Origin: Candidatus Saccharimonadota bacterium
Lineage (GTDB): Bacteria > Patescibacteriota > Gracilibacteria > BD1-5 > UBA2023
Reading direction: 5' to 3'
Length of the DNA stretch: 32,000 nucleotides
Assembly: GCA_963706795.1 (NCBI GenBank)
Contig: OY970170.1
Location: 900,001-932,000 of the forward strand
Of this stretch, positions 3,297 through 31,795 are shown piece after piece. How positions within the stretch are numbered: the first letter of the stretch is position 1; every line of letters starts with the position of its first letter. A program made the translations under genes and the position numbers. The notes under the pieces were generated by a model. The model was given only the letters and a program-made list of their open reading frames with translations, was not told the DNA's origin and searched no databases.

Positions 3297-4319
3297 TTAA
3301 CTTTGAGAAATTAAATGATTCTTCTTATCAAGAATTTCGCCAGATTCGCTCATAGTGAATGTCCATTCGAACTGTTTTCCTTTTATGAGATCGTCCAGCC
3401 AGTATACGTCATCCTTCCACATTTGGTCGTAGGGAATATCTGCGATATTGAACCAATTTGGATTCATTTCCTCGGATTCTAGGGGCTCTGGTCCTGTATA
3501 TTGTCTGCTGCGGTAGACATGACAGTCTTGATTCCACTTGGGTTCGTGAGGAAAACGAAAATGTAGGAGTCCGCTTACTTCGAATTTCTCGGTAGGGATT
3601 ACGAGTCCTGTTTCTTCGGTTAACTCTCTCGTAGCTCCGTCTATGACAGATTCAGCAGAAAGCACTTTTCCGCCAGCGCCATTCCAGTTTCCGGCACCAA
3701 ATCCACGCTTTTTCATCGCGAGAAGTATTTGGTCTTTGGTGTTGAACACAAATGCGAGTGTGCTGATCTGTGGCGGAGACTCGGGAACAACTTCTTGTGT
3801 TCCATAGAAATGCTCTACGATCCAACCAAGATCACCCTTGCTGTTTGGTTCACTTGGAAGTCGTGCGAGGAGCTCGTTTGGGTCCATCCAAAGCCATTCG
3901 TGCCATTCTTTGGGATCAACAAAGGGGATTTCACCCAGTTTGATCTCATATCCCATGGACATCGAGTGAAGCTCGGGATAATCAAATGGACTCAGTTTGC
4001 CCAGGACACGAACTTTATGATCACTTGGATGGATACCGAGTTCTTCGTGTGTTTCTCGAGCAAAAGCTTCGTCATATGTCTCTCCACTGCTGACATGTCC
4101 GCAGGCACTAAAATCGAGTCCACCAGGGAATTTCTTTTTATGGTAGGCTCTGCGAGGAATGCCGAGTTCTCCGGCGTCATTAACGAGCAAGAGATAGACG
4201 CTTCGGATCGTTTGCCCCTGTAGCTGAAGAGCTTCCGGACCACCGTCTGCATAAATATCATCCATGGCACGAGTGTCCACGACGATATCATTTGCATCGA
4301 CGATATCCAGAAGCTCCAT
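3297..4319 (-). CDS. tandem Nudix hydrolase (N-terminal Nudix domain plus C-terminal MutT/MTH1-like domain)
   Basis: Two complete Nudix boxes: GHVSSGETYDEAFARETHEELGI and GGKVLSAESVIDGATRELTEETGLV. The second domain contains KKRGFGAGNWNGAGGKV, which closely resembles the MTH1/NUDT1 signature. Confidence 0.8.
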   Translation of the reverse strand: MELLDIVDANDIVVDTRAMDDIYADGGPEALQLQGQTIRSVYLLLVNDAGELGIPRRAYHKKKFPGGLDFSACGHVSSGETYDEAFARETHEELGIHPSDHKVRVLGKLSPFDYPELHSMSMGYEIKLGEIPFVDPKEWHEWLWMDPNELLARLPSEPNSKGDLGWIVEHFYGTQEVVPESPPQISTLAFVFNTKDQILLAMKKRGFGAGNWNGAGGKVLSAESVIDGATRELTEETGLVIPTEKFEVSGLLHFRFPHEPKWNQDCHVYRSRQYTGPEPLESEEMNPNWFNIADIPYDQMWKDDVYWLDDLIKGKQFEWTFTMSESGEILDKKNHLISQS

Positions 4320-4324
4320 AGTAA

Positions 4325-5782
4325 CTAATTGAAGAATCGAATCTTGTCAGCACTTGGATGAGTGCGGAGTTTTTCGAGGGTCTTTGCTTCGATCTGACGA
4401 ACACGCTCACGTGTTACACCGAATTCTTTACCTACTTCTTCGAGAGTGTGGATCTCACCTCCATCGAGACCAAAACGCATTATGATGATTTTGCGCTCAC
4501 GAGGTGTGAGGAAATCGAGCATCTCATAGAGATTTTCTTTGAGAAGAATGAGGTTGGCGCTCTTGTCTGGAGTGAGGTATTTGTCATCTTCGACGAAGTC
4601 TCCGAGGGTAGTGTCTTCTTCTCCACCAACTGGTGAGTCGAGTGAGAGGATATCCTGAGAGATACGCATGATCTGACGAACCTTACGGATGTCCATATCA
4701 AGTTCGAGTGCGAGCTCTTCCATGAGTGGTTCACGTGCAAGTTCCTGTGTGAGTCGGCGGAAAGTATGTGTGAAACGATTGATTGTTTCTACCATATGAA
4801 CCGGTACTCGGATTGTTCGAGCCTGGTCAGCGATTGCACGAGTTACTCCCTGTCGGATCCACCAAGTTGCATATGTCGAGAACTTAAATCCCTTTTCTGG
4901 ATCGAACTTATCCACTGCGCGGAAGAGTCCAACGTTTCCTTCCTGGATGAGGTCGAGGAGTCCAAGACCACGTCCCATGTATTTCTTCGCGATCGAAACT
5001 ACGAGACGAAGATTGGCTTCTGCAAGCTTACGACGTGCTGATTGGTCACCCTTTTTAATGAGTCGTCCGAGACGAACTTCTTCTTCGGCGTCGATGAGTG
5101 GGAATCGTCCGATTTCATTGAGGTACATTCGGATCGAGTCGTCCGAGATTTCTGAGAGATCGATTTCGTGTGGCTTGTCTTCTCCGGCGTGCTTGAAGAG
5201 TTCTTCTTTTTCGAGCGTGTCGACAATATCAACTCCGAGCTTCATAAGTCGGGTATAGATATCATCGAGTTTATCGAGGTCATCTTCGGCATGAGGGAGA
5301 GCGTTCATGAGCTCATCATGTGTGAGCTTTCCTTCCATTTTTCCCTTCTTGAAAAGCAGCTGCATGTTTTCGTCGAGACCCTCGAGGATCTCTGGCGGAA
5401 CACTCACGTCGATAAATTTCTGGAGGCCCTTTCCTACGCGACGCTTGTCCTGTGCACGATCGATTGGGAGACGATTAAGTCCTCGTTCACGTTTTTTTGG
5501 TCGCCCTTCCTCGTCTTCACCATCTTCGTCCTCATCCATGTCATCTTCATCAAATTCGTCTTCTTCCTCATCTTCAAACTCGTCCTCGAGTTCTTCGAGG
5601 ATTTTTTTGTCGATGACCATGTCGTCATCAATAAAGGCAGGGAGTACTTTTTTACCTTTGGATTTTTCGTCCGCAGTTTCGATGAGTGTCTCGATATCAA
5701 GGTCAATGGGTGCTTCCATTGTGGTGAGATCCACCTCTTGAACATCGGCGAGTTTTTTCTTATCGTCGTTCTTCTTTGGCAT
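4325..5782 (-). CDS. rpoD: RNA polymerase primary sigma factor (sigma-70)
   Basis: [60 protein letters not shown] (regions 2-3) and a region 4 HTH ([20 protein letters not shown]). There is an acidic N-terminal insert. The start is taken at MPKKNDD (ATG 5782), 19 nt after the dnaG TAG. No in-frame TGA. Confidence 0.95.
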
Positions 5783-5801
5783 TCGCGGACAGGTTATAAC
5801 T

Positions 5802-7475
5802 CTAAATAATCCCAAGTCTTTTTCCCTTTGCAAGGAGACTTGAGTAGGCTACGAGATACTCGTTAGAGTTCTGGTCGTAGTCGCGTTCGAGTGACTTTTT
5901 CTCATCTTCGAAGATGAGTCTCTGAGCTCTTTTGACAAGCTCATGAAATTTTAGGAGAATCGATTCTCTCTGTGCGTCCGTGTTGTCCTCTTCTATAAAG
6001 AAAGTAAGAGCCTTTATGCGATCAGTTTCGTTGTCGGAAGATTTTCCGAGATGAATATCGATGCGGCTTCTTAGGAAGGATGCAGACGGGATCGCATCAA
6101 AGTGCGATTCATTATAGTCGAGTCGCTCCAAAAACAAATCAAATAAATCGTAGGCTTCGATATATCCCGCCAAAATTTCTCAAAAGTCAAAACCCGTGAC
6201 TTCCTGAGGTGCTTCCTCGATCACACGGGGAAGCTTAATATTTTTGTACTCGTGATAGACTGTTTCCTCGTCCAGATCAAGAAAACGTGCCAGTGCCTTC
6301 ATACTCATATCGACCTCAATTCGAGAAGTCATTCGTCTCACATATTTGAGTGCCTCTCGTAAAATCTGCGTCTTACCAATCGCAGATGCGATATCAAATT
6401 TACGGGCTCCGAGCTCAATAAAGAACTGAACAGGCGAAATCGCATGATCGATGCACGCCTGAAAATCACCACCAGATTTTACAAATTCGTCGGGATCTTT
6501 GCCGGATTCGATGCGGATAATTTTGATGTCGACTTCTTCGTTGAGGAGATTTTCGAGGCTCGCGAAGGTCGCATTGACTCAGGCATTATCCGAATCAAGA
6601 CAGAGATAAATCCGATGACTGAGGCGCTTTAAAAATTGCACATGCTCTTTGGTGAGCGCTGTACCGCTGATCGCGACTGTATTGGTAAATCCTGCCTGAT
6701 GAAGCGCAATTGTGTCCATTTGCCCCTCGGCAATGATCACGAATCCCTTTTTGCTGATCTCAGTTTTTGCGAGATTAAGTCCGTAGAGAATTTCACTCTT
6801 ATTAAAAATCCTCGAAGCGGGAGAATTGAGATATTTTGGCTCACCCTGATCAATAATACGACCAGTAAAAGCCACTATATTTCCTGTATAATTCGCGATA
6901 GGGAAGACGATTCGGCCAAAAAATTTATCACGGGATGACGAGACAAAAACACCCGAATCCATGATATCTTTTTCGCTGAATCCCTTCTCCTTGAGGTGAT
7001 AAAAAAGTCCGCGCGAATCGCCCGAATATCCAATCCCAAATTTTTCGAGTGTTTCGCCCGTGAGTCCTCGTTTTTGGATGTAGGTGAGCTTGTCGATATT
7101 TTCTGGCTTGTAGAGGTCTTGTTGATACCAAGAAGCGACCATTTTGTAGAGCTCGTAGATATCAGTTCGGTTCTCACCACGCTCTTTGTAATAGTCAGTT
7201 TTGAGCTCAACTCCGGCTTCTTTGGCGAGGATTTGGATGGCTTCTCGGAATTCGATTTTTTCGACTTCTGAGAGGAATTTTACTGGCCCACCACCGCGAT
7301 GACATGAGAAACAGTAGGCAATATTTTTTGCCGGCGAAATCATAAAAGATGCTGTCTTTTCGTTATGAAAGGGACAGAGTGCCTTGTAATTTGCACCTGC
7401 TTTTTTCATTTGCACGTATCTTCCAGCCAGATCAACGATATTGATCTTGGCATCTATTTCTTGTGAAAGCGACAT
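5802..7475 (-). CDS. dnaG: DNA primase
   Basis: Zinc finger [29 protein letters not shown] and a Toprim domain. ORF-track pieces 6579..7475 and 5802..6173, plus the unlisted middle part, share one frame and are joined by TGA at 6579-6581 and 6180-6182. The first TGA completes the Toprim 'DSDNA-G' (DxDxAG) motif. Confidence 0.9.
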
Positions 7476-7915
7476 GCGCGAGAGTATATTGAGAAAATCT
7501 CGATTGGGAAGCGACTTTGAGCCAAGAAAAAAATCGGCGAGTGATCTGCCGATTTTCTAAAACTGAATGTTCATGCCACGACCCGCGTATCCAGTTCAGC
7601 AAATTTTGCGACCAGTCCGTCGATCATGTTATGAACGAGTTTGCACTGCCCTTGTGCATAATTACCGAAGCACATAATGGCTTCTTCGAGGCTTTCGAGC
7701 AGTCGCTCGCTTGGTTCGCCAAGATTCTTTGTTTCATCGCAGATCTGGGACAATCCTGTCGCGAAGCGTATTTGGTCGCGTTGCACGATTGGTTCGATTC
7801 TTTTCAACAGTGTATCGACAACCCCTTCAATAATATTGACTGCTGGAGAGTTTGGATCCATATTTGCAAGCAATTTCTTGCATGCTTGGACAAGTGCAGA
7901 ATTTCCCTGTGTCAT
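7454..7915 (-). CDS. hypothetical protein downstream of the RT (115 aa to the TGA at 7571; 153 aa if TGA is read as Gly, ending at TAG 7454)
   Basis: Strong SD (AAAAAGGAGGaagtgATG) with the ATG at 7913-7915. The product looks all-helical and acidic (MTQGNSALVQACKKLLANMDPNSPAVNIIEGVVDTLLKRIEPIVQRD...). I recognise no family. The 3' end is uncertain (see findings). Confidence 0.55.
7530..7556 (-). terminator. intrinsic terminator downstream of the RT cassette
   Basis: Minus strand: agAAAATCGGCagatcactcGCCGATTTTtttcttgg. It lies 15 nt after the TGA at 7571-7573. Confidence 0.55.
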
Positions 7916-8001
7916 CACTTCCTCCTTTTTGTTTCGCTCGGATTGAGCGGAGCGATTATGGACAGAAGGATGGCCTTGTCAAAAGGATTTTTGGTCGACG
8001 C

Positions 8002-9720
8002 CTAGCGACTTACCACAAAGATGCTTTTTTGGAAATCCTCAGGCAGGATATTTTGGTACTGTGTGAGAACCGCTTCCCAGGCATGTGTCATCTCACGAGA
8101 GAAGGCGTAGAGTCTGCCTGTTCTTGCTCCTCTCGTTCGCATAAGTCCAAAATATCCGATGTGATATGCGTGTGAAAAATATCCAAGCATCTGCATGAAT
8201 TCTGGCTGGCTTCGTAGATCTGCCCAATCTTTAATCTTTCGGTCGGAGAAGAGTCTGAGCGTATCGAATGTATATGCGCAAATCCGTCGTTCGATCTTTT
8301 TTGGAGGCATAAATCGAAAATTGCTCTCAGTCCGATCAAATCATGATGTATCCTGAGTTATTGCATCAGCTGGAATGCTTGCACCCCAAATGTTATAGGC
8401 TTTTTTGTTTGTGAGATAGCTTTTCTTTTCGGGTGCAATAACGAGTCCACAGTCTGTAATGACCTCATCGATTTTAGCCCGAATGTCCTCGGGAATCGTA
8501 TGCGAAGAGAAGATCACAATATCATCCGCATATCGGGCATATTCAAGCTGCGTTGAGGTTTTGTTATTGTGCTGACGCCAGGCTCTCGGTGAGCGTGAAT
8601 AGTCACGGATAATCTTGTAGATCCACTTATCAATCGCGTACTGACCAAAGAGATTTGCGATCATTGGGCTGATATGACTTCCTTGTGCGAGGCGATTATC
8701 TACTCAGGCAATGCGAGTAATGCCTCTTGCTGCATATTCGAGTGTATCTTTTGGAAGTTTGGATGTAGTGGGTGATCTTTGTAGTTCGTGCACAAGACCT
8801 CTCTTCGCCATGTCGAGAGTAATACTCGGGAAGAAATTTCTGATATCGATCTGATAGACGCTTTTAATTTTTGTGTGCCTTAGATTATGAAATCCATCGA
8901 GCGTTCTCCTGAGTCATTCGTATGCGCCAGATCCAGGTCGGAAGCCACAAACTGAATCCGAAAGCCAGCTATTATTGAGACCGCAAAGTGCGAGTTTTTG
9001 GGCTGCGCGCACTATATTTATGGGTTCTGTAGGGATAGAAAACGTACTCGAAAGCACGCTGTAGAGCTTGAGATATGGGTCATTTCTTGGTGTAAATTCC
9101 CAATTTGCGTCCTGCCAATTAAAAATATCGTGTTCGATATCATTGTATTTTGCTGCTCTGAGTGCAGAAAGCTTATGAAAAGCCAGATATGCATCCTGCA
9201 GGTTTTTACTTTCGTCCATTGTCACAAATGCCTTCGAACCATCAGGAGACTCTATTTTTCGCGTTTTTCAGTTTCACTTCGGGATTTCAAATTGCCGATA
9301 AATCTTGCCTGGATGCTCTTCGATAGTGGTAAGTGCACTATGGGTGATATTTGCAATAATACTTAAAAGAAGGGTCTTTTCGGGCATAATATCTGCTTCC
9401 TGCCGAGTCTTTTCATGTGCTTGCCCAAAATACAGGCTGGAGAGCATGCTTGAGTTTTGAACTCCTGCTATAGCTGCAAGAGCACAGGCTTCGGCAACCA
9501 TTTGGCGTTCTTTCAGAAGAGTCTCTTTGTTCGGTTTTTCCTCATTCATTTGAGAGGGCACATCTGTGCCTTCTAAAACATCATTTACCTGCTGTTTTAC
9601 GGGTGAATCCGTGATATCAAATTTGCTCGCTGCATCCTGCACATCTGGTCGCTCAAAAACGCCACTTTCTTTTTGAGAAGAAAGAGCGCTATCCTGAGGT
9701 AATCAGTGCTTTTGTGGCAT
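8002..9720 (-). CDS. stand-alone reverse transcriptase (retron / group-II-like / defence-associated RT superfamily), 572 aa under code 25
   Basis: Four ORF-track pieces (9274..9642, 8914..9225, 8341..8664, 8002..8310) share one frame. They are joined by TGA at 9703, 9274, 9268, 8914, 8704 and 8341. RT motifs seen: FEIPK-G-N-G-KTRKIESP (motif 1), CGFRPGSGAYEGL (2a), IDIRNFFPSI (2), RLAQGSHISPMIANLF (4), YARYADDIVIFS (5), GLVIAPEKKSYL (6) and YNIWGASI (7). The stop is a genuine TAG at 8002. The start (ATG 9720) has no SD and is uncertain. Confidence 0.85.
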
Positions 9721-9737
9721 GAGAGACAATTTTCTTA

Positions 9738-9782
9738 ATTTTACACTAAAAAACTTGATTCGGCAATTATTGCCACTATGCT
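9738..9782. promoter_or_regulatory. candidate back-to-back divergent promoters flanking a 13-nt palindrome
   Basis: Minus strand: TTGCCG (9766-9761), 17 nt, TAAAAT (9743-9738), facing the RT. Plus strand: TTGATT (9755-9760), 16 nt, TATGCT (9777-9782). The palindrome GGCAATaATTGCC lies at 9762-9774. These are hexamer matches by eye only. Confidence 0.25.
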
Positions 9783-10077
9783 ACAAAACGCGGTAGCTTT
9801 ACGGTCGATTCTTGGAAGCTCTGAAGCGAATGAGATGTATCGTTCACGAAGAGATTTACTTCCCTGAGGTACTCCGTCGATGACGGACAAGATTTGTAAA
9901 ACTGGTATGAATTTGTCGGCATGTCTTAGACCCAAATTGTGTTTCACTGATTTGCGTTTACGACTGAAATGCTTTTCAATGGTATCAGCCGAAAACCAAA
10001 CCCATGATTCTCAGCATACTGTGCTTCGAATTCATGTATTTGTTTTCTACGAACATCAAATGCGTACCGCGTTGTTC
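9783..10077. ncRNA. candidate structured non-coding RNA adjacent to the RT (strand unresolved)
   Basis: Lies in the 395-nt gap between the uvrC stop and the RT start, with no convincing ORF. It is bracketed by the 9-nt inverted repeat AACGCGGTA (9787-9795) / TACCGCGTT (10065-10073). Internal hairpins lie at 10003-10036 and 9873-9887. Confidence 0.3.
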
Positions 10078-10082
10078 TTAAA

Positions 10083-10108
10083 GCCTCGATTCATTCGAGG
10101 TCTTTTTT
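10083..10108 (+). terminator. intrinsic terminator-like hairpin; the T-run is on the plus strand
   Basis: gCCTCGAttcatTCGAGGtctttttt, 8 nt from the uvrC TAA. On the minus strand (uvrC sense) the stem is followed only by CTTT. Confidence 0.5.
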
Positions 10109-10115
10109 ATGCCCA

Positions 10116-12041
10116 TTATCCAAAAAGTCCGTGATCCTTTAGGGTTTGTAATTGTGTGGCGTTGCATGCACTCAGGAGATCACTCTCAGAGAGTTCTTTA
10201 ATACCGTCCACAGAACCCGCGAGCTTGAGGAGTTTTTTGCGCGTGGTGGGACCAAATCATGGAAGCTCTTCGAGGATATTTTTCTTCATAGCCTTCGATC
10301 GGGCAGATCGGTTAAAATTGATCGCAAATCGGTGAGCTTCGTCGCGGATTTTTTGGAGAAGCATGAGCTCAGGACTCCCATGCTCAAATCGTATAGAGAT
10401 ATTGGAGTCCGGTATAAAAATCTCTTCCTCGCGCTTTGCAAGCGAGCAAAAATAGGGGAGACACTGCACGAGTGACTCATAAAATTCGTCTCGTGATTGC
10501 TCTGGATTTTCGTGAGCGGCTCCGTATTTCTCGATCCCGCGGTGAACTCATTCGAGCGCGCTGGAGAGTTGTCATTTTCCACCATCTATGACGATCATAG
10601 TGGGGAAGTTTGATTGCTCGAATCATTCGATTGTTCGGCGCTCCATGATCTCGCGCATACTCTCGAAGTCATCTATTTTGTCAGCTTCGAGGGTCTTGAG
10701 TTTATATTTGCGGTAGAGCGTATTTTCGCTCTTCCCATTGACGATAACCGAGCGCGAGGCTACTGTAAATTGTCCGTTGGTGTGGCTGTTGTCATAGCAC
10801 TCAAAAGTGATCGGCCCTGACTTTGGGATTTCGTAGCCGAGCTCTTCAAGAATATTGCTCATCGTGCCCTTGGTGAGGGTTTTTTTGGTGAGATTTTCCA
10901 TCTCGGACCGATAGGCAAAATTCATGAGATTGGTCTTGGCGAACTTGAGGAGATCAGCTTTTGGACCAGTTTCTCCGCGATCGATCGAGACATGATTCGC
11001 GCGTAAAAACTCTGCGATTGCTGTACCAGTGAGATCAATCTCTGTGATGAGTCGATCAATTGGGAGCTCTTCACTATAGCGTTCAGCCAAAAATTGCTCG
11101 ACGATTTCTGTGGTATCTTCTTCGAGTGGGGCTTCGATTTTGGATTGTACGACTCATTGGATTTCGCCTCCTCGCACGGCAGTGACTCCGATAAACCGTT
11201 TGTCATATTTTTCGAGGTATTCGACAATATCGGCATTACCCTTGATGGCATCGCGGGCAACTTGGCGCTCACCGAGTACACCGATGGATTCGATCTGTTC
11301 TTTGATTTTTTGAGCTTCTTCGAATTCGAGGGCTTTCGCTCTCTTGAGCATTTTTTCTTTAAGACCTTCCACGACTTCGCTCATTTGGCCGCGGAGGAAT
11401 TTTTTCATGGCTTCTACATTTTCTTTATGGGCGCCGAGGGTTTCTTTGGTCAGTAGGCATGGAGCAGGGCAGAGGCCGATGTAGTAGTCCATACACGGAG
11501 GAGTTCTGCCGGCTTTTGCGGTGATAATCGTCTCACCATTTTGCGTATCGAATTTCATCCGACAAGACCGAACTTTAAAAATTCTACGAAGATTTTTAAG
11601 GGTGAGATTGATGCTTGCGCCGCTGGTATACGGGCCAAAGTAGATACCACGAGGTGGCTTCTGTCTTCCTTTAAAGACCTCGCTTACAGGGCCTTCCGAA
11701 AATACGATATATGACAGATTTTTGTCATCCTTCATGAGCACATTGTATTTTGGACGGTGCTTTTTGATGAGATTAGTCTCGAGTACGAGAGCTTCTACAT
11801 CCGTGCCAGTTTCGAGCCATTCGATATCTGCGACCTGGCCGACCATCTGCGTTTTGGCTGCATTGAGCGATCCGTGTCCATTAAAATACGAATGCACCCG
11901 ACTCTTGAGATTGACTGATTTGCCGACATATAAAATCGTCCCTTGGGTGTTTTTCATGATATAAACACCAGGACGAGACGGGAGATTTTTGAGGATTGGA
12001 TCGAGGGAGGGTTTCACGGAATCTATTCTAGAAGTATGCAC
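10116..12041 (-). CDS. uvrC: excinuclease ABC subunit C
   Basis: GIY-YIG N-terminus (PGVYIMKNTQGTILYVGKSVNLKSRVHSYF), the UvrC endonuclease region and a C-terminal (HhH)2 domain. Pieces 11154..12041, 10623..11090 and 10257..10469 are in one frame. Five in-frame TGA lie at 11154, 10623, 10572, 10548 and 10257. TGA 10572 completes the conserved 'IDGGK-G-QL' motif. The stop is TAA at 10116. Confidence 0.92.
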
Positions 12042-17529: not shown

Positions 17530-19747
17530 AATACTTCTTTTCTACCTTCGTTCCATTCAAATAGTAAGCGAGGATGGTTTTGTAATCCCAGCCTTTTTCT
17601 TTGGCAAAATACGTCGCTCCGATTCCTGAGACACCAACTCCGTGACCCTTGCGTGTGTGACCAACTCCGGCTGGATCATCAACGGATTGTAAAAATGGAA
17701 TATCTACACAGTTTTTGCCGCCATTGGATTCGCAGTATTCTTTTGCGGATCTTGTGCGACCGTCGGATTCATTAAAGTACCAAGGTTTAATCACTGATCC
17801 AGAATATGTTACCACCTGACCATTCGTCGCATCGACGAGCTTTGCAGTGTCACCCGAACGAGATTCGTAGCCATATCCGAGATATTTTTGGAATACTTCT
17901 GGATCATCTGAGCCATCATAGTCTTTGCCTGGGAATTTACGATTTGTAGGATCGGTATACCAAAGTGCATAGCTTCGGGCTGCAGTGAGGATGGTTTTTA
18001 CCTTTTCGGGATTATCTCCGTTGCTGATCTCGGCGAGACCTTTGAGATAGTCTTCGAGTGGGAGCTCGTTGATGAGTTCGAGTTTGTTGCCAGTAACGCG
18101 TACTTCGATCTTTCCTCTAAAAACATTGTCATTGTACTTGCCAGATGTATCCCATGAAGGCTTGTGATCCCAGGTGGCAATACGTACAAGATTAGCGGAT
18201 AGTGCAATCTTTTTACCAGTATATCGCTTGCCATCGAGTACGAGCTCGAGTTTGCCGAGGACCTTCTTTTTGATAACCAGTGAATTAGAGGTAATGCCGC
18301 CAACTGTTTGATCAAAGGTGAGTATCGGGCTGCCATCGATTGCCTCGAGGCGGAGTTGCTTCCAATCAGTGGGAGTTGAGAGTTTTATACGAATTGTCGG
18401 ACCCTTTGCGAGCGGTTGAGATGAGCCGGCAACTGCGGTATTCGTATTTGAAGTACTTGCAGTCAGCGTATCTGGTTTAACGATCGGATTATCTACGAGG
18501 GCGTAATTTTTGGTGGTGGATTCGAGATCTTGGGTAAATCCTGCAATTTTTGTATAGAGATTTATGCCAGGGCAGGCTGTGTAACCAACATCCCGATGAC
18601 CCACGAGCGAGGCACTGAGTGTGTCTTCTGTAATACAATCAGTACCAGATTTACATTCTCGATGGCCGTTGGTTTTGCCTGCGACATTAATGCCGTACTT
18701 TTTTGCAAGATAGGCGATCACATTCTTGATGCCATCTTCTTGATCTTTGTTGACGTTATCAACTTCAAAATTACCAATAACACTGATACCTACAGTACCG
18801 CTATTATTCCATGCTGCGTGTGCTCCGACACTGTAGTCTCCACCGGCTCGACCTTCATATATTGTACCGCGCTGTCCGACGACGTAGTTGTAACCAAGAT
18901 CGCCCCAACCACGAGTGACAGTGTGGTAGTAGTACATTGATCTCATGAGTGCCTCGTCAGTGCTGTCATTGACGAGGTTTTCGGCAGTATGATGGAGGAC
19001 GATTTTGCGAACATCCTTTGTTTTCTCGATTGGCCAGACGAGATTATGTCCGTCTTCGGATCGTACAACCTCATTAACGACATATTCCTCAGGGAATTTT
19101 GTACGAAGATTGGTCGAAATCTTCTGAATCCTTTCGTTATATTTTTGAGTCGCGTCAGGCACGGGATCATTTTTGTGCTTCTCAAGATTGTCGTAGTAGC
19201 TCTTCCATACTTTTGAGTCTTTGTATCGAAGCGATTCATCTGCACCCCATTCGGCACGACTGACGACTTTAAGACCATCTGCATGGACTGTGAGACGGTC
19301 AGGATTGAGAGTAAGGTGCTTGGTTCCAGATTCTGTATCCAAGGCTACGATTTCGCTACTTGCACCAATGAGCGGTAGCTTGCTATCAATTTTTACACTG
19401 ATCGTATCGCTCGGCGCAAAATTGGCTGGCGCCGTAAAATATGTTCCATCTAGCCCCTCATCTCCCTCGATTTCGAGAGAAGCGGTTTTTGTAATTTTAC
19501 CGTTGGAGAGGGTGATAGTGACGTCATTTTCGTTCTCAATTGGCGTCTTGGAATGTATCTTTACAACAAAACTCGTCTTCGCTTCTGCAAAGCTCAAATG
19601 CTGCACTGCATTGAGGCCATTCATAGCGCGCGTTTCGCTATTGTATGCGTAAGTTGTTTGTAGTTCGAGAGATCCAATGATTGGAAAAAATATCTCAAGC
19701 AACAATGCGGAAGCAAGGGAGAATGAGACACGCTTAAGACTTGTCAT
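17528..19747 (-). CDS. secreted peptidoglycan hydrolase: N-acetylmuramoyl-L-alanine amidase (Amidase_2/PGRP) fused to a SpoIID/LytB-type domain
   Basis: Signal-like N-terminus (MTSLKRVSFSLASALLLEIFFPIIGS). Amidase_2 motifs are IVLHHTAE...GWGDLGYNYVV...GHRDVGYTACPG. The SpoIID-like C-terminus reads AARSYALWYT...FQKYLGYGYESRSG...YFNESDGRT. No in-frame TGA in about 740 codons. Confidence 0.8.
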   Translation of the reverse strand: MTSLKRVSFSLASALLLEIFFPIIGSLELQTTYAYNSETRAMNGLNAVQHLSFAEAKTSFVVKIHSKTPIENENDVTITLSNGKITKTASLEIEGDEGLDGTYFTAPANFAPSDTISVKIDSKLPLIGASSEIVALDTESGTKHLTLNPDRLTVHADGLKVVSRAEWGADESLRYKDSKVWKSYYDNLEKHKNDPVPDATQKYNERIQKISTNLRTKFPEEYVVNEVVRSEDGHNLVWPIEKTKDVRKIVLHHTAENLVNDSTDEALMRSMYYYHTVTRGWGDLGYNYVVGQRGTIYEGRAGGDYSVGAHAAWNNSGTVGISVIGNFEVDNVNKDQEDGIKNVIAYLAKKYGINVAGKTNGHRECKSGTDCITEDTLSASLVGHRDVGYTACPGINLYTKIAGFTQDLESTTKNYALVDNPIVKPDTLTASTSNTNTAVAGSSQPLAKGPTIRIKLSTPTDWKQLRLEAIDGSPILTFDQTVGGITSNSLVIKKKVLGKLELVLDGKRYTGKKIALSANLVRIATWDHKPSWDTSGKYNDNVFRGKIEVRVTGNKLELINELPLEDYLKGLAEISNGDNPEKVKTILTAARSYALWYTDPTNRKFPGKDYDGSDDPEVFQKYLGYGYESRSGDTAKLVDATNGQVVTYSGSVIKPWYFNESDGRTRSAKEYCESNGGKNCVDIPFLQSVDDPAGVGHTRKGHGVGVSGIGATYFAKEKGWDYKTILAYYLNGTKVEKKY

Positions 19748-30119: not shown

Positions 30120-31005
30120 AACTATTCATGGAAAGTTTTGTAGATATGACATTAAAGAGCATGCCAAATACTACCATTCCATAGATCGTATTTACACCCA
30201 TGGCTACACGTTGCAATGCTGTCTGAGGAGAAGCATCGATTCCAAGACCCGAAATCGTCACGAGCGAATTAAAGAAGTAATTCGAATAATCCGTGAGATG
30301 TGGAATCATCCTGAGATTATCCGGAGCAAAGTAATCCGCCAACCAATATATGCTTGCAAAAAATATGATCGAAAGTGCACAAGTAAGAGACAGACGCACA
30401 AAGCTCGTCCCATAATTAGATATTCCCCGAAATATTGAAAAACCAATGTAGAGACCAAATTCTCGATTGAGGAAGAATCGATTTTTCTTGATATTCATCC
30501 GCGTTGTATAGAGCTCTAGGACTCGATCTGACATACTCATATCTTTGTAATATCGCTCAAGTGTGTGTACATAGTGTTCACAAACGTACAAGAAGGCCTT
30601 CATCTGGTTGAGATGGATCTTGTTCTCGAGGATATTCAGGCGACGATTTACAGCATTAAAATAGCGCTTGAGATGTACGATTACTCCAAATTTTTTAATC
30701 TCACCAAATGCATCAATTTCACCGAGCGATTCATGTGTGATATGTGTGATCTGCGTATCCATTTCCATCAAAAACATATGGAAGAGCTTCTGCATCTCAG
30801 GAGTTTCGATCGTAAAAAGACGCAATTTGGTCACGAGACCATAAAAAAGTATCTCGAGTCGTCGCTCTGATCCATGCTTTGTTGCTGCGAGTTCCTTCTT
30901 TAAAAACGCGTCAATACTCTGGAGCTCGCGCTTCGTTTCAATATCCTCACCTAGTACAAATGGCTTGATAGTTGAGAGTGTGAAGGCAATGTTTTCTGTG
31001 TTCAT
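30118..31005 (-). CDS. two-TM potassium-channel-like pore protein with a ~190-aa cytoplasmic N-terminal domain
   Basis: C-terminal TM1 (LSLTCALSIIFFASIYWL), a pore helix plus filter-like NYFFNSLVTISGLGIDASP, and TM2 (MGVNTIYGMVVFGMLFNVI). The filter reads T-I-S-G-L-G-I-D instead of T-V-G-Y-G-D. Confidence 0.6.
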   Translation of the reverse strand: MNTENIAFTLSTIKPFVLGEDIETKRELQSIDAFLKKELAATKHGSERRLEILFYGLVTKLRLFTIETPEMQKLFHMFLMEMDTQITHITHESLGEIDAFGEIKKFGVIVHLKRYFNAVNRRLNILENKIHLNQMKAFLYVCEHYVHTLERYYKDMSMSDRVLELYTTRMNIKKNRFFLNREFGLYIGFSIFRGISNYGTSFVRLSLTCALSIIFFASIYWLADYFAPDNLRMIPHLTDYSNYFFNSLVTISGLGIDASPQTALQRVAMGVNTIYGMVVFGMLFNVISTKLSMNS

Positions 31006-31066
31006 ATGGCTATACTAGCGCATCTCGAGATATGCGACAATATTCACGACATGACAAATCCTGCAT

Positions 31067-31795
31067 TTATGACCTAATTAAGACAAGAAAAAACCGCCCG
31101 AAGTGGGCGGTTTTCATTTTGTATCAATGGACTCAGATAGCAAAGCTCGATCGAATAATCAAAAAGCTTGCAAACCAAATCCCACAGGCACGAACTCGAT
31201 GGAACCATCTGGCATAGCGTTCTGCAAAGTACTGCAGAGCGCCATAGAGTATCCAAGCACCTATGATCATACTGATTACACCAAAGATATTACCAAGTAA
31301 ATACCAGGATGTTTCCATCCAATCTTTACCAATAATATTTGCAGTATTCACAGCAATGTCATCTGTGCAATTTACTCCAAAACCCTTAAAAGCATCCTGG
31401 AATATTTTTGGAGTACTAACAGTTATGAGACTGACGAGCTTGCCGTAGAATGACGTATTTGTTTCGTCATCTTCCTCCGAATTTTCTTCTGAAGAATATG
31501 ATTCTTGCCATGCATCCACCCCCAATTTAAAAACAAGACCCGCAGCAATGAGGCCCACTGCGTACTTCAATGAGATACCCATGATCTTAACTTCAAGCAG
31601 TGCGGTCAATGAAGTTCCCACTGTAATCACGATCACGAGCATAACAATATACATAGCAATGAGTCCCGCAGTTGCCTGCAGTTTTTCCTTGCCATTTTTT
31701 GCACCAGCCATGATGCTACCAAAAATAATGGCGTCATCAATGCCGGTTGCATACCAAATAGTGAAACCGAACAGCATGAGCGCTAGCGGATCCAT
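31067..31795 (-). CDS. integral membrane protein, CadD/LysE-superfamily-like (220 aa to TGA 31133; 242 aa if read through to TAA 31067)
   Basis: MDPLALMLFGFTIWYATGIDDAIIFGSI... resembles the CadD-type 'ATxIDDxxxL' N-terminus. It has multiple TM helices and an acidic central loop. The family call is weak. Confidence 0.5.
31085..31114 (-). terminator. intrinsic terminator after the 31133 TGA
   Basis: Minus strand: AAACCGCCCacttcGGGCGGTTTtttcttg. Confidence 0.7.

Follow-up and report, generated by a model that had tools for sequence, protein, structure and literature searches.

A reverse transcriptase and a divergently encoded structured RNA as a probable two-part retron-like system between uvrC and dnaG

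The cassette between uvrC and dnaG in the 32-kb stretch of DNA analysed here (the window) is probably a two-part retron-like system, in which a reverse transcriptase (RT) acts with its cognate structured RNA, most likely in an accessory role that is probably anti-phage. The initial annotation had described one same-strand module of four parts, with an RT, a structured RNA upstream of it and a small partner protein. The RT and a structured RNA stand; the single module does not, as the RNA is encoded divergently and the small ORF, preceded by a promoter of its own, persists in a genome without the RT and falls outside the system. Of the flanking genes, all on the minus strand, uvrC (10116-12041, a stop-to-stop frame in which the start codon is not fixed) was recognised by Pfam matches to GIY-YIG and UvrC_RNaseH on its L024 orthologue, the primase gene dnaG (5802-7475) by a Zn_ribbon_DnaG match on the orthologue, and rpoD (4325-5782), which comes after dnaG, by sigma-70 regions 1.1 to 4. 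The reading frames of uvrC, dnaG and the RT gene stay whole only if TGA encodes glycine, confirming the use of genetic code 25, and the measured gap from the uvrC stop to the RT ATG is 395 nt, as annotated. Pfam and RNA-family scans of the locus likewise agreed with the reported absence of an integrase, a transposase, a cas gene or an intron RNA, and no effector was identifiable in the window.

The RT gene (8002-9720, minus strand, stop codon included) encodes the annotated 572 aa under code 25. Its catalytic YADD box is encoded at 8521-8532, YARYADDIVIFS is present, and RVT_1 is its sole Pfam match (E=6.1e-15). Three of the six in-frame TGA codons specify glycines conserved in the family (G149, G151 and G269), and the enzyme is both intact and catalytic, as well as adapted to code 25. 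Its lineage-specific extras are an ~85-aa insertion between motifs 1 and 2 and ~90 N-terminal residues, the latter poorly conserved and missing from L031, L032 and P0001. With a dN of 0.363 against a saturated dS of ~2.75, the RT is under purifying selection. A candidate RT promoter at 9738-9766 on the minus strand (TTGCCG 9766-9761, a 17-nt spacer and TAAAAT 9743-9738, a 9/12 match), which we infer to serve this gene, stands back-to-back with the promoter of the RNA gene in a block that hardly differs between the window and L024.

Profile searches against RT classification models placed the enzyme nearest to retron RTs and below the cut-offs of all curated retron, group II and DRT models: 72.9 bits for the retron model (cut-off 235), 64.8 for the group II maturase TIGR04416 (cut-off 300) and 26.8 for Drt2 (cut-off 390). 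The PADLOC RT_III-A model gave 91 bits, and the nearest retron RT models were types III-A, IX and VI. In a PDB profile search the nearest solved retrons Kva2, Ec86 and Ec67 scored 100-115 bits, group II RTs 69, DRT2 40, G2L4 32 and DGR RTs 23.7. The earlier description as a stand-alone retron- or defence-like RT thus holds for its stand-alone character and its nearest relatives, but the enzyme is of no curated retron type, and in the family alignment SAYxGLR replaces the retron signature NAXXH and IWG replaces VTG. An exhaustive HMMER search gathered about 30 cluster representatives with a common C-terminal extension, among which the window and L026 RTs are sisters. These make up a small unclassified family, placed as sister to the retrons with weak support for its monophyly against them (49/100 in a rough NJ tree) and with classical retron RTs as the nearest relatives.

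The 395-nt stretch, previously taken for a leader ahead of the RT and in its orientation, appears instead to hold a plus-strand RNA gene, transcribed separately and divergently from the RT between a promoter and a terminator of its own. This retron-type (msr-msd-like) ncRNA gene of ~320 nt (9787-10108, plus strand) follows a sigma-70-type promoter (9755-9782, plus strand; TTGATT 9755-9760, a 16-nt spacer and TATGCT 9777-9782) whose -10 hexamer stops 4 nt ahead of the 5′ arm. The 5′ arm AACGCGGUA (9787-9795) is followed on the plus strand by an invariant GCU starting at the candidate branching nucleotide G9796, a 5′ domain with a GAU-triloop hairpin (9873-9887), a variable 3′ domain, the invariant C10063-G10064 with the opposing G at 10064, the 3′ arm UACCGCGUU (10065-10073), and an intrinsic terminator (hairpin 10083-10101/2, U-run 10103-10108) towards which uvrC converges. 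The arms are terminal inverted repeats that pair and close the RNA, with G9796 and G10064 opposed just inside the resulting helix; paired terminal inverted repeats and two opposing G at that position are the criteria for retron RNAs (PMC7736814). The window RNA has a minimum free energy of -96.1 kcal/mol (z=-4.27; 0/100 shuffles fold as well), and no Rfam family matches it.

Comparison with a second organism, represented by a composite locus, argues for the fold and its orientation. The RNA promoter is 100% identical in the two, while the RNA region is ~75% identical, a level similar to that of the coding DNA on either side. Read in the plus orientation, the consensus fold has 64 pairs with 128/128 cells paired and includes 8 compensatory and 11 one-sided changes; 4/500 shuffles reach the observed value, and slid controls give 37-45% pairing. 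A U.G pair in the composite terminator would become an A.C mismatch if the other strand were read.

The RT and the RNA occupy the same uvrC-dnaG site in the second organism, where the RT is 57% identical to that of the window, and both are missing from its closest relative, L001. Between the composite and L001, homology is lost exactly at the uvrC stop and regained 19 nt after the RT stop; the unit is 2141 nt long in the composite, and L001 has 47 nt of unrelated sequence in its place. The corresponding unit in the window (7985-10115) begins just past the uvrC stop and extends about 20 nt beyond that of the RT. A repeat scan found no target-site duplications or terminal repeats around the unit and no significant direct repeats. 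Because the window is an outgroup to both the RT-bearing composite and the RT-less L001, the most parsimonious reading makes the cassette ancestral here, and because so close a relative does without it, the pair is dispensable. Where the initial annotation envisaged the absence of the whole cassette from a related genome, the RT-less relative lacks the RT and RNA unit and keeps the small ORF.

From the window and composite RNAs a search rule was drawn up, consisting of an arm of at least 7 bp, GCU, CG and a complementary arm. It gave exactly one match beside the RT in each of L031, L032 and L026 (shuffle probability ≤0.007 each) and four in L027. The GCU/CG junction had been spotted after several leaders were inspected, which makes these matches partly post hoc; the loci fetched later, L034 with one match and L035 with three, are a prospective test. 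Altogether the design of promoter, arm-GCU...CG-arm and terminator was found at 8 RT loci, in a total of 13 RNA units. Throughout, GCU and CG never vary, and the seven innermost arm pairs are paired in 91/91 cases with 2-5 pair types per position. Arm sequences are free to differ between loci, yet complementarity is always kept. Nine units were scanned for signals: each has a sigma-70 promoter scoring 8-11/12 with a gap of 4-8 nt between the -10 and the arm, most terminate in a hairpin and T-run, and in the reverse orientation the promoter score is just 6-8/12. The same signals occur in L034 and L035, and the L035 arms contain U.G pairs, which reading the reverse strand would turn into A.C mismatches. 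Short hairpins lie in the 5′ part of the units and, in several, long stem-loops in the 3′ part. No clear unit was found by the rule at the short-RT members L013 and L036, and elsewhere in the window its one further match lies within an ORF and has neither promoter nor terminator.

The link between RT and RNA is suggested by their co-occurrence at these 8 loci, their joint absence from L001 and a 5′ RNA motif, GCUU(U)ACGGUC, common to the sister pair of the window and L026. It is very unlikely that the + strand RNA has nothing to do with the RT, as an independent small RNA or a mere convergent terminator region whose conserved structure would answer to other constraints, since the same architecture stands beside family RTs amid different, unrelated neighbours, RNA and RT are lost together, no Rfam family fits, and the window has the complete pattern only here. 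Its own promoter and terminator, the latter also serving the convergent uvrC, would suit such a reading. So would the result of a covariance model trained on the four units of L027, which recovers the L031 RNA (E=1.8e-4) but not the window RNA, where it aligns at a hairpin only (E=0.4); because this is no profile match, it is the architectural rule that supports homology between the window RNA and the distant units.

The small ORF region (7454-7982, minus strand) has a near-consensus promoter (TTGACA-16-CATAAT, 11/12; 7982-7955), a strong SD (~7929-7921) and an ATG at 7915, 86 nt after the RT stop. The start, the SD and the spacing agree with the annotated 115-aa ORF; its end does not, as 114 codons lead to a TGA (7571-7573), a non-stop in code 25, and the frame continues to TAA 7454-7456 for 153 aa. 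The annotated intrinsic terminator was found as a hairpin and T-run at ~7527-7556, read by eye from the sequence, the terminator scan making no call there owing to the 9-nt loop. The ORF has a homologue in the composite and is retained in L001, which has neither RT nor RNA, with the same promoter and 5′UTR. No other element of the locus is so poorly conserved: its protein is 35% identical between genomes in which UvrC and DnaG are 96-98% identical, and its pS is 0.77 against 0.34-0.39 in the flanks, with synonymous sites saturated. Examined for conservation across homologous cassettes, as the initial annotation had suggested, the non-coding region and the small ORF part ways, only the former being conserved, with covariation. 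The ORF was not found at any other RT-family locus examined, and it has no match in PADLOC or NCBIfam and only a sub-threshold chance match in Pfam. The proposed role as partner or effector is not upheld; because it persists without the RT, the ORF is no specific partner but an unrelated, resident hypervariable gene.

Weighed against a retron-like system, the best surviving alternative, though a rather unlikely one, is that the RT and its RNA partner carry out a non-retron reaction, with the RNA as template or scaffold and priming by a protein or a 3′-OH, as in DRT2 or DRT9/DRT3-like systems. DRT2 makes rolling-circle cDNA encoding a toxic gene, and DRT9 and DRT3 synthesise homopolymers or repeats. 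DRT2 and DRT9 consist of RT and RNA only and need no separate effector, a minimal layout shared with the window and with retron Eco2, the type I-C RT-Toprim fusion, although the window RT, matching RVT_1 alone in Pfam, has no effector domain fused to it. The independent transcription of the RNA would fit, as would the units of L027, L031 and L026, which are more stable when folded in the complementary, cDNA sense, and region X of retron RTs (NAXXH), suggested to act in initiation (PMC7736814), is absent from the window enzyme. Similarity to DRT2, DRT3, DRT9 and UG enzymes is however far below that to retrons, as the Drt2 and DRT2 scores above illustrate. The DRT2 RNA is a pseudoknot; the window RNA is retron-like instead, bearing the terminal inverted repeats and opposing G.

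A classical one-strand tripartite retron, in which an msr-msd leader would share a transcript with the RT and the small ORF would supply the effector or an accessory protein, is improbable. In the retron classification used (Mestre et al. 2020, PMC7736814) a retron comprises an msr-msd RNA, an RT and an effector, and the gene order, the tight spacing, the strong SD and promoter of the small ORF and the nearness to retron RTs conform to it. The promoter and terminator signals of all units scanned nevertheless put the RNA on the opposite strand, as do the G.U patterns of the window and composite, and the small ORF, with its own conserved promoter, behaves as set out above. Canonical retrons co-transcribe RNA and RT, unlike the separate unit found here, and across the family the RNA varies in orientation relative to the RT and in number, from 1 to 4 tandem copies. 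Two distant loci come closer to the tripartite layout: there the RT and its 3 or 4 tandem RNA units share an operon with two large conserved partner proteins of weak AAA-ATPase and VWA similarity, which are probably effectors.

Diversification or editing of the small ORF by the RT, DGR-like or by msd-templated recombination, is barely credible: the extraordinary divergence of the adjoining ORF invites it, but that divergence spans the entire ORF rather than a C-terminal variable region and is equally great in L001, the RT is far from DGR RTs, there are no significant direct repeats, and a TR/VR-type search with A-to-N changes tolerated found no such pair, the similarity of RNA and cassette to the small ORF being at shuffle level, which largely refutes the idea. 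The RT is neither a group II intron enzyme nor a DGR one, and a degenerate group II intron or other mobile retroelement is effectively refuted: motifs 1-7, QGxxxSP, YADD, the sub-threshold TIGR04416 match and the clean presence/absence indel are shared features, yet no intron RNA domain was found on either strand at E≤10, domains V and VI cannot fit because only ~20 nt follow the RT stop, Pfam shows no maturase or endonuclease domain, retron RTs score higher, and the cassette, most parsimoniously ancestral and without target-site duplications or terminal repeats, gives no evidence of mobility.

In the favoured retron-like system, the RNA is closed by its terminal repeats and presents a conserved msr-like 5′ domain followed by a variable msd-like 3′ domain. 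By analogy with retrons, the RT would bind the 5′ domain, prime on the 2′-OH of G9796 and copy the 3′ domain from the invariant C10063, yielding a branched RNA-linked single-stranded cDNA; cDNA synthesis by the pair is what we infer, and 2′-OH priming is not assured, because the RT lacks NAXXH and VTG and falls below the curated retron cut-offs. In contrast to the retrons compared, the cassette belongs to a code-25 CPR bacterium and is apparently effector-less in this lineage; its most likely role is an accessory one, probably against phage, for which the effector would be encoded elsewhere or be lacking altogether. The RT and RNA pair has been maintained under purifying selection at the uvrC-dnaG-rpoD locus, yet is dispensable.

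The uvrC (10116-12041, minus strand), dnaG (5802-7475, minus strand) and reverse transcriptase (RT) genes of the window are intact only when TGA is read as glycine (genetic code 25), and the minus-strand order is uvrC, a 395-nt gap, RT, 86 nt, a small ORF, dnaG and rpoD (4325-5782, minus strand, all sigma-70 regions found). The RT gene runs from 9720 to 8002 on the minus strand and encodes 572 aa with a YARYADDIVIFS box, and the only domain found in it by Pfam is RVT_1 (E=6.1e-15), confirming the intact 572-aa RT with a YADD box of the initial annotation. Since three of its six in-frame TGA codons fall on glycine residues conserved in the family (IPKGNGKTR, GLR), the gene is intact and long adapted to code 25. 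Between the window and the same locus of a second organism, assembled here as a composite of two contigs, the RT is 57% identical, with a dN of 0.36 versus 0.098 for UvrC. The RT is fast-evolving yet under purifying selection, since dS is saturated at about 2.75. The N-terminal region (residues ~7-148, 9277-9702, minus strand) holds ~90 extra residues, poorly conserved between window and composite save for the islands MPxKxGL, DSPVKQQV and AEACA, and missing in the RTs of loci L031 and L032 and in the family protein P0001. Motifs 1 and 2 of the RT are separated by an insertion of ~85 aa; it is well conserved, and P0022, the RT of locus L026, has it too.

The proposal that the RT is of retron or defence type was borne out in part, as its nearest relatives are retron RTs by both PADLOC and structure comparison, but it scores below all curated retron and DRT cut-offs. 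Every curated NCBIfam model fell short, namely retron_St85 with 72.9 bits (cut-off 235), retron Ec67 with 55.3 (450), the group II maturase TIGR04416 with 64.8 (300), Drt3a with 37.2 (200), Drt2 with 26.8 (390) and AbiA with 16 (250). The best PADLOC matches were retron RT models (RT_III-A, 91 bits) scattered over many retron types, and the top 25 consisted of retron or generic RT models, those for DRT, UG and Abi being absent. Each RT of the family scored 40-138 bits against PADLOC retron models of all types, evenly spread and far under the scores of true members. While a word-indexed search gave only 12 weak relatives, an exhaustive HMMER search with a profile of P0001 and TGA-free fragments of the window RT recovered a family of about 30 cluster representatives, matching through a common C-terminal extension. 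The family signatures are IPKGxGKxR, GFRxxxSAYxGLR, LPQGAPTSP, YGRYADDIV, IWG, RFKxP, LSHA and HAW...LP. Against solved structures the family profile scored 100-115 bits for the retron RTs Kva2, Ec86 and Ec67, about 69 bits for group II RTs, 40 for DRT2, 32 for G2L4, 25 for DRT1 and 23.7 for the DGR RT.

Retron RTs are characterised by NAXXH in region X, between RT2 and RT3, and by VTG in region Y of RT7 (Mestre et al., PMC7736814). Both are absent from the family alignment, in which region X reads GFRxxxSAYxGLRxM with no conserved H, and VTG is replaced by IWG (YNIWGASI in the window) with only the G in common. A rough neighbour-joining tree placed the family as sister to the classical retron RTs, with weak support and a family monophyly of 49/100. 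By these comparisons the RT is retron-related and outside all described retron types. A scan of genome contigs with the RT gave no match, which is weak evidence of absence because the seed peptides lie in variable regions, and a metagenome scan returned distant RTs only. In the public records of P0022, P0027 and P0029 (loci L026, L032 and L031) W stands at otherwise invariant Gly positions (e.g. LPQWW, IPKWNGK), because code-25 genes were translated with code 4, and code-11 gene calling fragments homologues from code-25 lineages, such as P0020, the RT of the composite. Routine searches therefore miss the family.

The 395 nt between uvrC and RT had been regarded as an upstream RNA on the strand of the RT. 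This reading was not sustained, as the apparently empty stretch is predicted to be an RNA gene with its own promoter and terminator on the opposite strand (9787-10108, plus strand). A sigma-70 promoter (TTGATT 9755-9760, TATGCT 9777-9782) precedes a 5' arm at 9787-9795, which pairs over 9 bp with a 3' arm at 10065-10073; inside the arms lie GCU (9796-9798) and CG (10063-10064), both invariant in the RNA units of the family, and a terminator hairpin (10083-10101/2) with a T-run (10103-10108) follows, all on the plus strand. The terminator converges on the uvrC stop, which places its hairpin inside the indel unit described below. The region is about 75% identical between window and composite, equal to the adjoining uvrC DNA, and the long-range helix formed by the 9-nt inverted repeat carries two compensatory changes between them (C-G to U-A, A-U to G-C). 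A consensus structure derived from the same two sequences on which it was tested has 64 pairs, with pairing kept in 128/128 cells; 8 of the pairs differ on both sides and 11 on one side, and most of the one-sided changes are G.U exchanges, for which the opposite strand would have A.C. This level was reached by 4/500 shuffles, and slid controls gave 37-45% pairing. The fold z-score was -4.27 for the plus strand versus -3.06 for the other; the 3' half is structured, with no single long hairpin. Reading the RNA on the RT strand was dropped on account of the promoters, terminators and stronger covariation of the other strand, the energy-based strand test being mixed. No Rfam family matches any of the RNA units found in this study. 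A second arm-GCU...CG-arm match in the window (18954-19266, plus strand) lies inside a 787-aa ORF with neither promoter nor terminator and was judged to be chance.

The uvrC-dnaG site was compared in two relatives. A Patescibacteria MAG retrieved via DnaG (Deming_bin.574, locus L001) has the order uvrC, 47-58 nt, a promoter and 5'UTR as in the window, the small ORF, a terminator and dnaG, with no RT between uvrC and dnaG. The RT fragment P0020, 68% identical to that of the window, lies on contigs L024 and L025, which overlap by 1434 nt at 100% identity and rebuild a locus of uvrC, a 373-nt gap, a 583-aa RT, the small ORF and dnaG. UvrC and DnaG are 86% and 87% identical between window and composite, likewise 86% and 87% between window and L001, and 96% and 98% between composite and L001, so that the window is the outgroup to the other two. 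With the RT and RNA cassette present in window and composite and absent in L001, it was most parsimoniously ancestral at this site, and L001 would recently have lost it or had it replaced. Between composite and L001 the breakpoints are sharp, homology stopping at the uvrC stop codon and returning 19 nt past the RT stop (2141 nt in the composite), and the unit of presence and absence is therefore the non-coding region plus RT, without the small ORF. In L001, which lacks RT and RNA, the small ORF still lies between uvrC and dnaG.

In several code-25 genomes the neighbours of family cassettes are core genes of replication and transcription (window 4325-10115, L031 5948-11180, L026 3628-8084). The window has uvrC-[RNA|RT]-x-dnaG-rpoD versus dnaG-[RNA|RT]-rpoD in L031, whose RT belongs to a different subclade, and in L026 the RT lies ~1.2 kb from a gene resembling, by eye only, Pol III alpha. 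A counter-example is L032, where the neighbour of the cassette resembles PPK2, also by eye.

The small ORF (ATG at 7915, minus strand), proposed as a 115-aa partner of the RT, was not upheld in that role, nor in that length. It has 114 codons before a TGA that is no stop under code 25, and the frame reads on to a TAA at 7454-7456, giving 153 aa. It is kept in L001 with the RT gone, was not found at any other RT-family locus examined, and has no PADLOC or NCBIfam match and only a sub-threshold chance match in Pfam. Its near-consensus promoter (TTGACA-16-CATAAT, 11/12) and strong SD are its own. The TGA (7571-7573) stands just before the terminator hairpin in the window, as does that of the ORF in the composite (L025 1811-2212), while the ORF of L001 (2624-3028) stops with TAG at the equivalent position; with TGA as glycine, the frame gains 39 codons that cover the terminator and extend past the start of dnaG. 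Such readthrough would either lengthen the C-terminus or leave a non-stop mRNA.

No other element of the locus varies as much as the ORF (compared regions: window 7571-7915, minus strand; composite 4212-4613; L001 2624-3025), which has 35% protein identity between composite and L001 and saturated synonymous sites in the same pair (pS 0.77 versus 0.34-0.39 in flanking genes). Homology between these two gave a score of 193, reached by 0/300 shuffles in a permutation test. BLASTP of the window ORF against L001 found no match, and its homology is seen only via the composite and permutation tests. The promoter and 5'UTR remain ~83% identical despite the divergence of the ORF. The pattern looks like allele replacement or suggests local hypervariability or hypermutation. 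It is not driven by the RT, because there is neither a TR/VR pair nor similarity to the RNA above shuffle level and because L001, with no RT, has an ORF that diverges just as much.

The RNA units were then compared across the family. The upstream regions of L031, L032 and L026, code-25 members whose RTs are 25-31% identical to that of the window, have no sequence alignable with the window, and each contains exactly one inverted repeat (7 bp or longer) with an invariant trinucleotide and dinucleotide next to its inner ends, a design with a dinucleotide shuffle probability of at most 0.007 per sequence. In whole-locus scans the match to this rule always lay beside the RT. Nine units, read on the strand opposite the RT, have a sigma-70 promoter (8-11/12, spacer 15-17) whose -10 stops 4-8 nt short of the 5' arm, a core of 5'-arm-GCU...CG-arm-3', and a GC-rich hairpin 3-9 nt past the core, directly followed by a T-run in most; in the other orientation promoters were at noise level (6-8/12). 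The RNA is divergent from the RT in window, composite, L031, L032, L026 and L034; in L027 and L035 it runs in the direction of the RT, still as a separate unit. The RT of L027 (P0014) heads an operon with 1065-aa and 665-aa proteins and is followed by four tandem co-directional units, which covary mutually with 15-18 compensatory pairs.

Two loci were fetched after the rule had been fixed, and both show the same promoter and terminator signals. L034 (P0026) has a single unit with an arm of 10 bp, which lies upstream of the RT and points away from it as in the window. L035 (P0019) has three tandem units upstream of an operon of RT, 1025-aa and 642-aa proteins, and their arms include one U.G pair, which on the opposite strand would become an A.C mismatch. 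Altogether 13 units from 8 loci have GCU and CG invariant and the seven innermost arm pairs paired in 91/91 cases, with 2-5 pair types per position. A GAU-triloop hairpin (9873-9887 in the window) is common to most units, and the 5' motif GCUU(U)ACGGUC is common to window and L026, whose RTs are sisters (71/100), which fits a putative 5' RT-recognition domain. The short-RT members L013 and L036 gave no clear unit in the rule scan.

R1, a covariance model trained on the four units of L027, recovered L031 (E=1.8e-4) and missed the RNAs of window, composite, L026, L032, L034 and L035, even with filters off for the first four, so that it establishes no link at profile level from the window RNA to distant units. 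An R1 match at 30990-31119 (minus strand, E=0.025) was rejected as a unit, being only a terminator hairpin (AAAACCGCCCACTTCGGGCGGTTTTTT). In the complementary (cDNA) sense the L027 units, L031 (7643-7900) and L026 (3628-3751) have the more stable fold and a larger number of G.U pairs, with -82.5 kcal/mol versus -60.2 in transcript sense for L027 unit 1, whereas in window, composite and L032 the transcript sense folds better. The tandem arrays (L027 17054-18044, four units, also in L028 and L030; L035 8886-9874, three units) carry a TTGACA-type promoter and a terminator for each unit, and their internal sequences differ while closing helix and junction are conserved.

The msr-msd RNA of retrons has terminal inverted repeats that hybridise into a stem, at whose inner end two G residues face each other, one of which, the branching G, primes cDNA synthesis from its 2'-OH; the msr has 1-3 short hairpins and the msd a long stem-loop (PMC7736814). 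The family RNAs share with it the pairing of terminal repeats in all units, and the G after the 5' arm and the G before the 3' arm in 13/13 units, G9796 being the candidate branch point. In L031 and L032, with their long perfect hairpins in the 3' portion, the msr/msd hairpin layout is evident. The family differs from retrons in that, as predicted computationally, the RNA is a separate transcription unit, in the varying copy number (1-4) and orientation of the RNA relative to the RT, and in the RTs without NAXXH and VTG. By analogy, the RT would bind the 5' domain of the RNA, prime at G9796 and copy from C10063 into the 3' domain, yielding a branched RNA-cDNA. The computational analysis shows for the window two promoters that face in opposite directions, a ~320-nt RNA that ends in a terminator and is closed by its terminal repeats, and an intact RT maintained by selection. 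The two partners, RNA and RT, are found side by side at 8 loci and are jointly missing in L001. Presence and absence in close relatives, fast RT evolution and kinship with retrons suggest that the cassette is accessory and probably anti-phage.

In the long-RT subfamily two partner proteins (~1050 aa and ~650 aa) are conserved across L027, L035 and L034, with only sub-threshold similarity to AAA and VWA and no sequence relatives in the PDB. Their homologues are absent from the window and the other code-25 loci, and the window cassette contains neither an effector gene nor a fused effector domain, Pfam finding only RVT_1 in the RT and the small ORF not being specifically linked. An effector may conceivably be encoded elsewhere in the genome. 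A mechanism like that of DRT2 or DRT9, which would likewise need no effector, is unlikely to explain the cassette; the DRT2 structure and the Drt2 model are both poor matches to the RT. An unrelated small RNA is largely excluded, as rule matches across loci sit beside a family RT. The initial annotation had noted no obvious intron RNA with the cassette, and this was corroborated, a group II intron being largely excluded: Rfam gave no intron match at E<=10 on either strand, Pfam gave no GIIM or HNH domain, the TIGR04416 score of 64.8 bits stands against a cut-off of 300, and the indel unit leaves just about 20 nt 3' of the ORF. It likewise proved right that the RT is not of DGR type, with no TR/VR-like similarity above shuffle level, no significant direct repeats and 23.7 bits against the DGR RT structure.

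We rate the locus, from its sequence, as a member of a putative RT family that is sister to retrons and whose msr-msd-like RNAs are encoded by free-standing genes; in the uvrC-dnaG-rpoD neighbourhood of the window it is minimal and effector-less. In the literature searched, neither naturally occurring tandem arrays of retron RNAs nor any retron-like system from Gracilibacteria, Patescibacteria or CPR is described. If confirmed, the locus would widen the retron principle, in which an RT is coupled to a self-priming structured RNA. It would then, as far as that literature shows, be the first retron-like system in Gracilibacteria or CPR and in a genome with TGA as glycine, and an RT clade without the two canonical retron motifs would help to define what branched priming requires. 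Template RNAs would then exist in nature as independent genes, some in tandem with 3 or 4 differing units per RT, and such multi-template arrays are relevant to retron-based genome engineering, whose arrays are now hand-built. The conserved, unannotated 1000-aa and 650-aa partners are candidate new effectors. A far more speculative reading, to which we give little credence, is that the locus is the founding example of a distinct retron-sister RT-RNA class with one to four free-standing template RNA genes per locus, stripped in code-25 CPR to RT and RNA beside dnaG-rpoD in two RT subclades, where the pair would not act in classical abortive infection and the cDNA would have a direct role of its own (e.g. 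in replication, priming, repair or as nucleic-acid decoy) in minimal symbiont genomes. If confirmed, the unusually minimal, effector-less pair would pose the question of what an RT and its RNA alone do in a symbiont genome of ~1 Mb.
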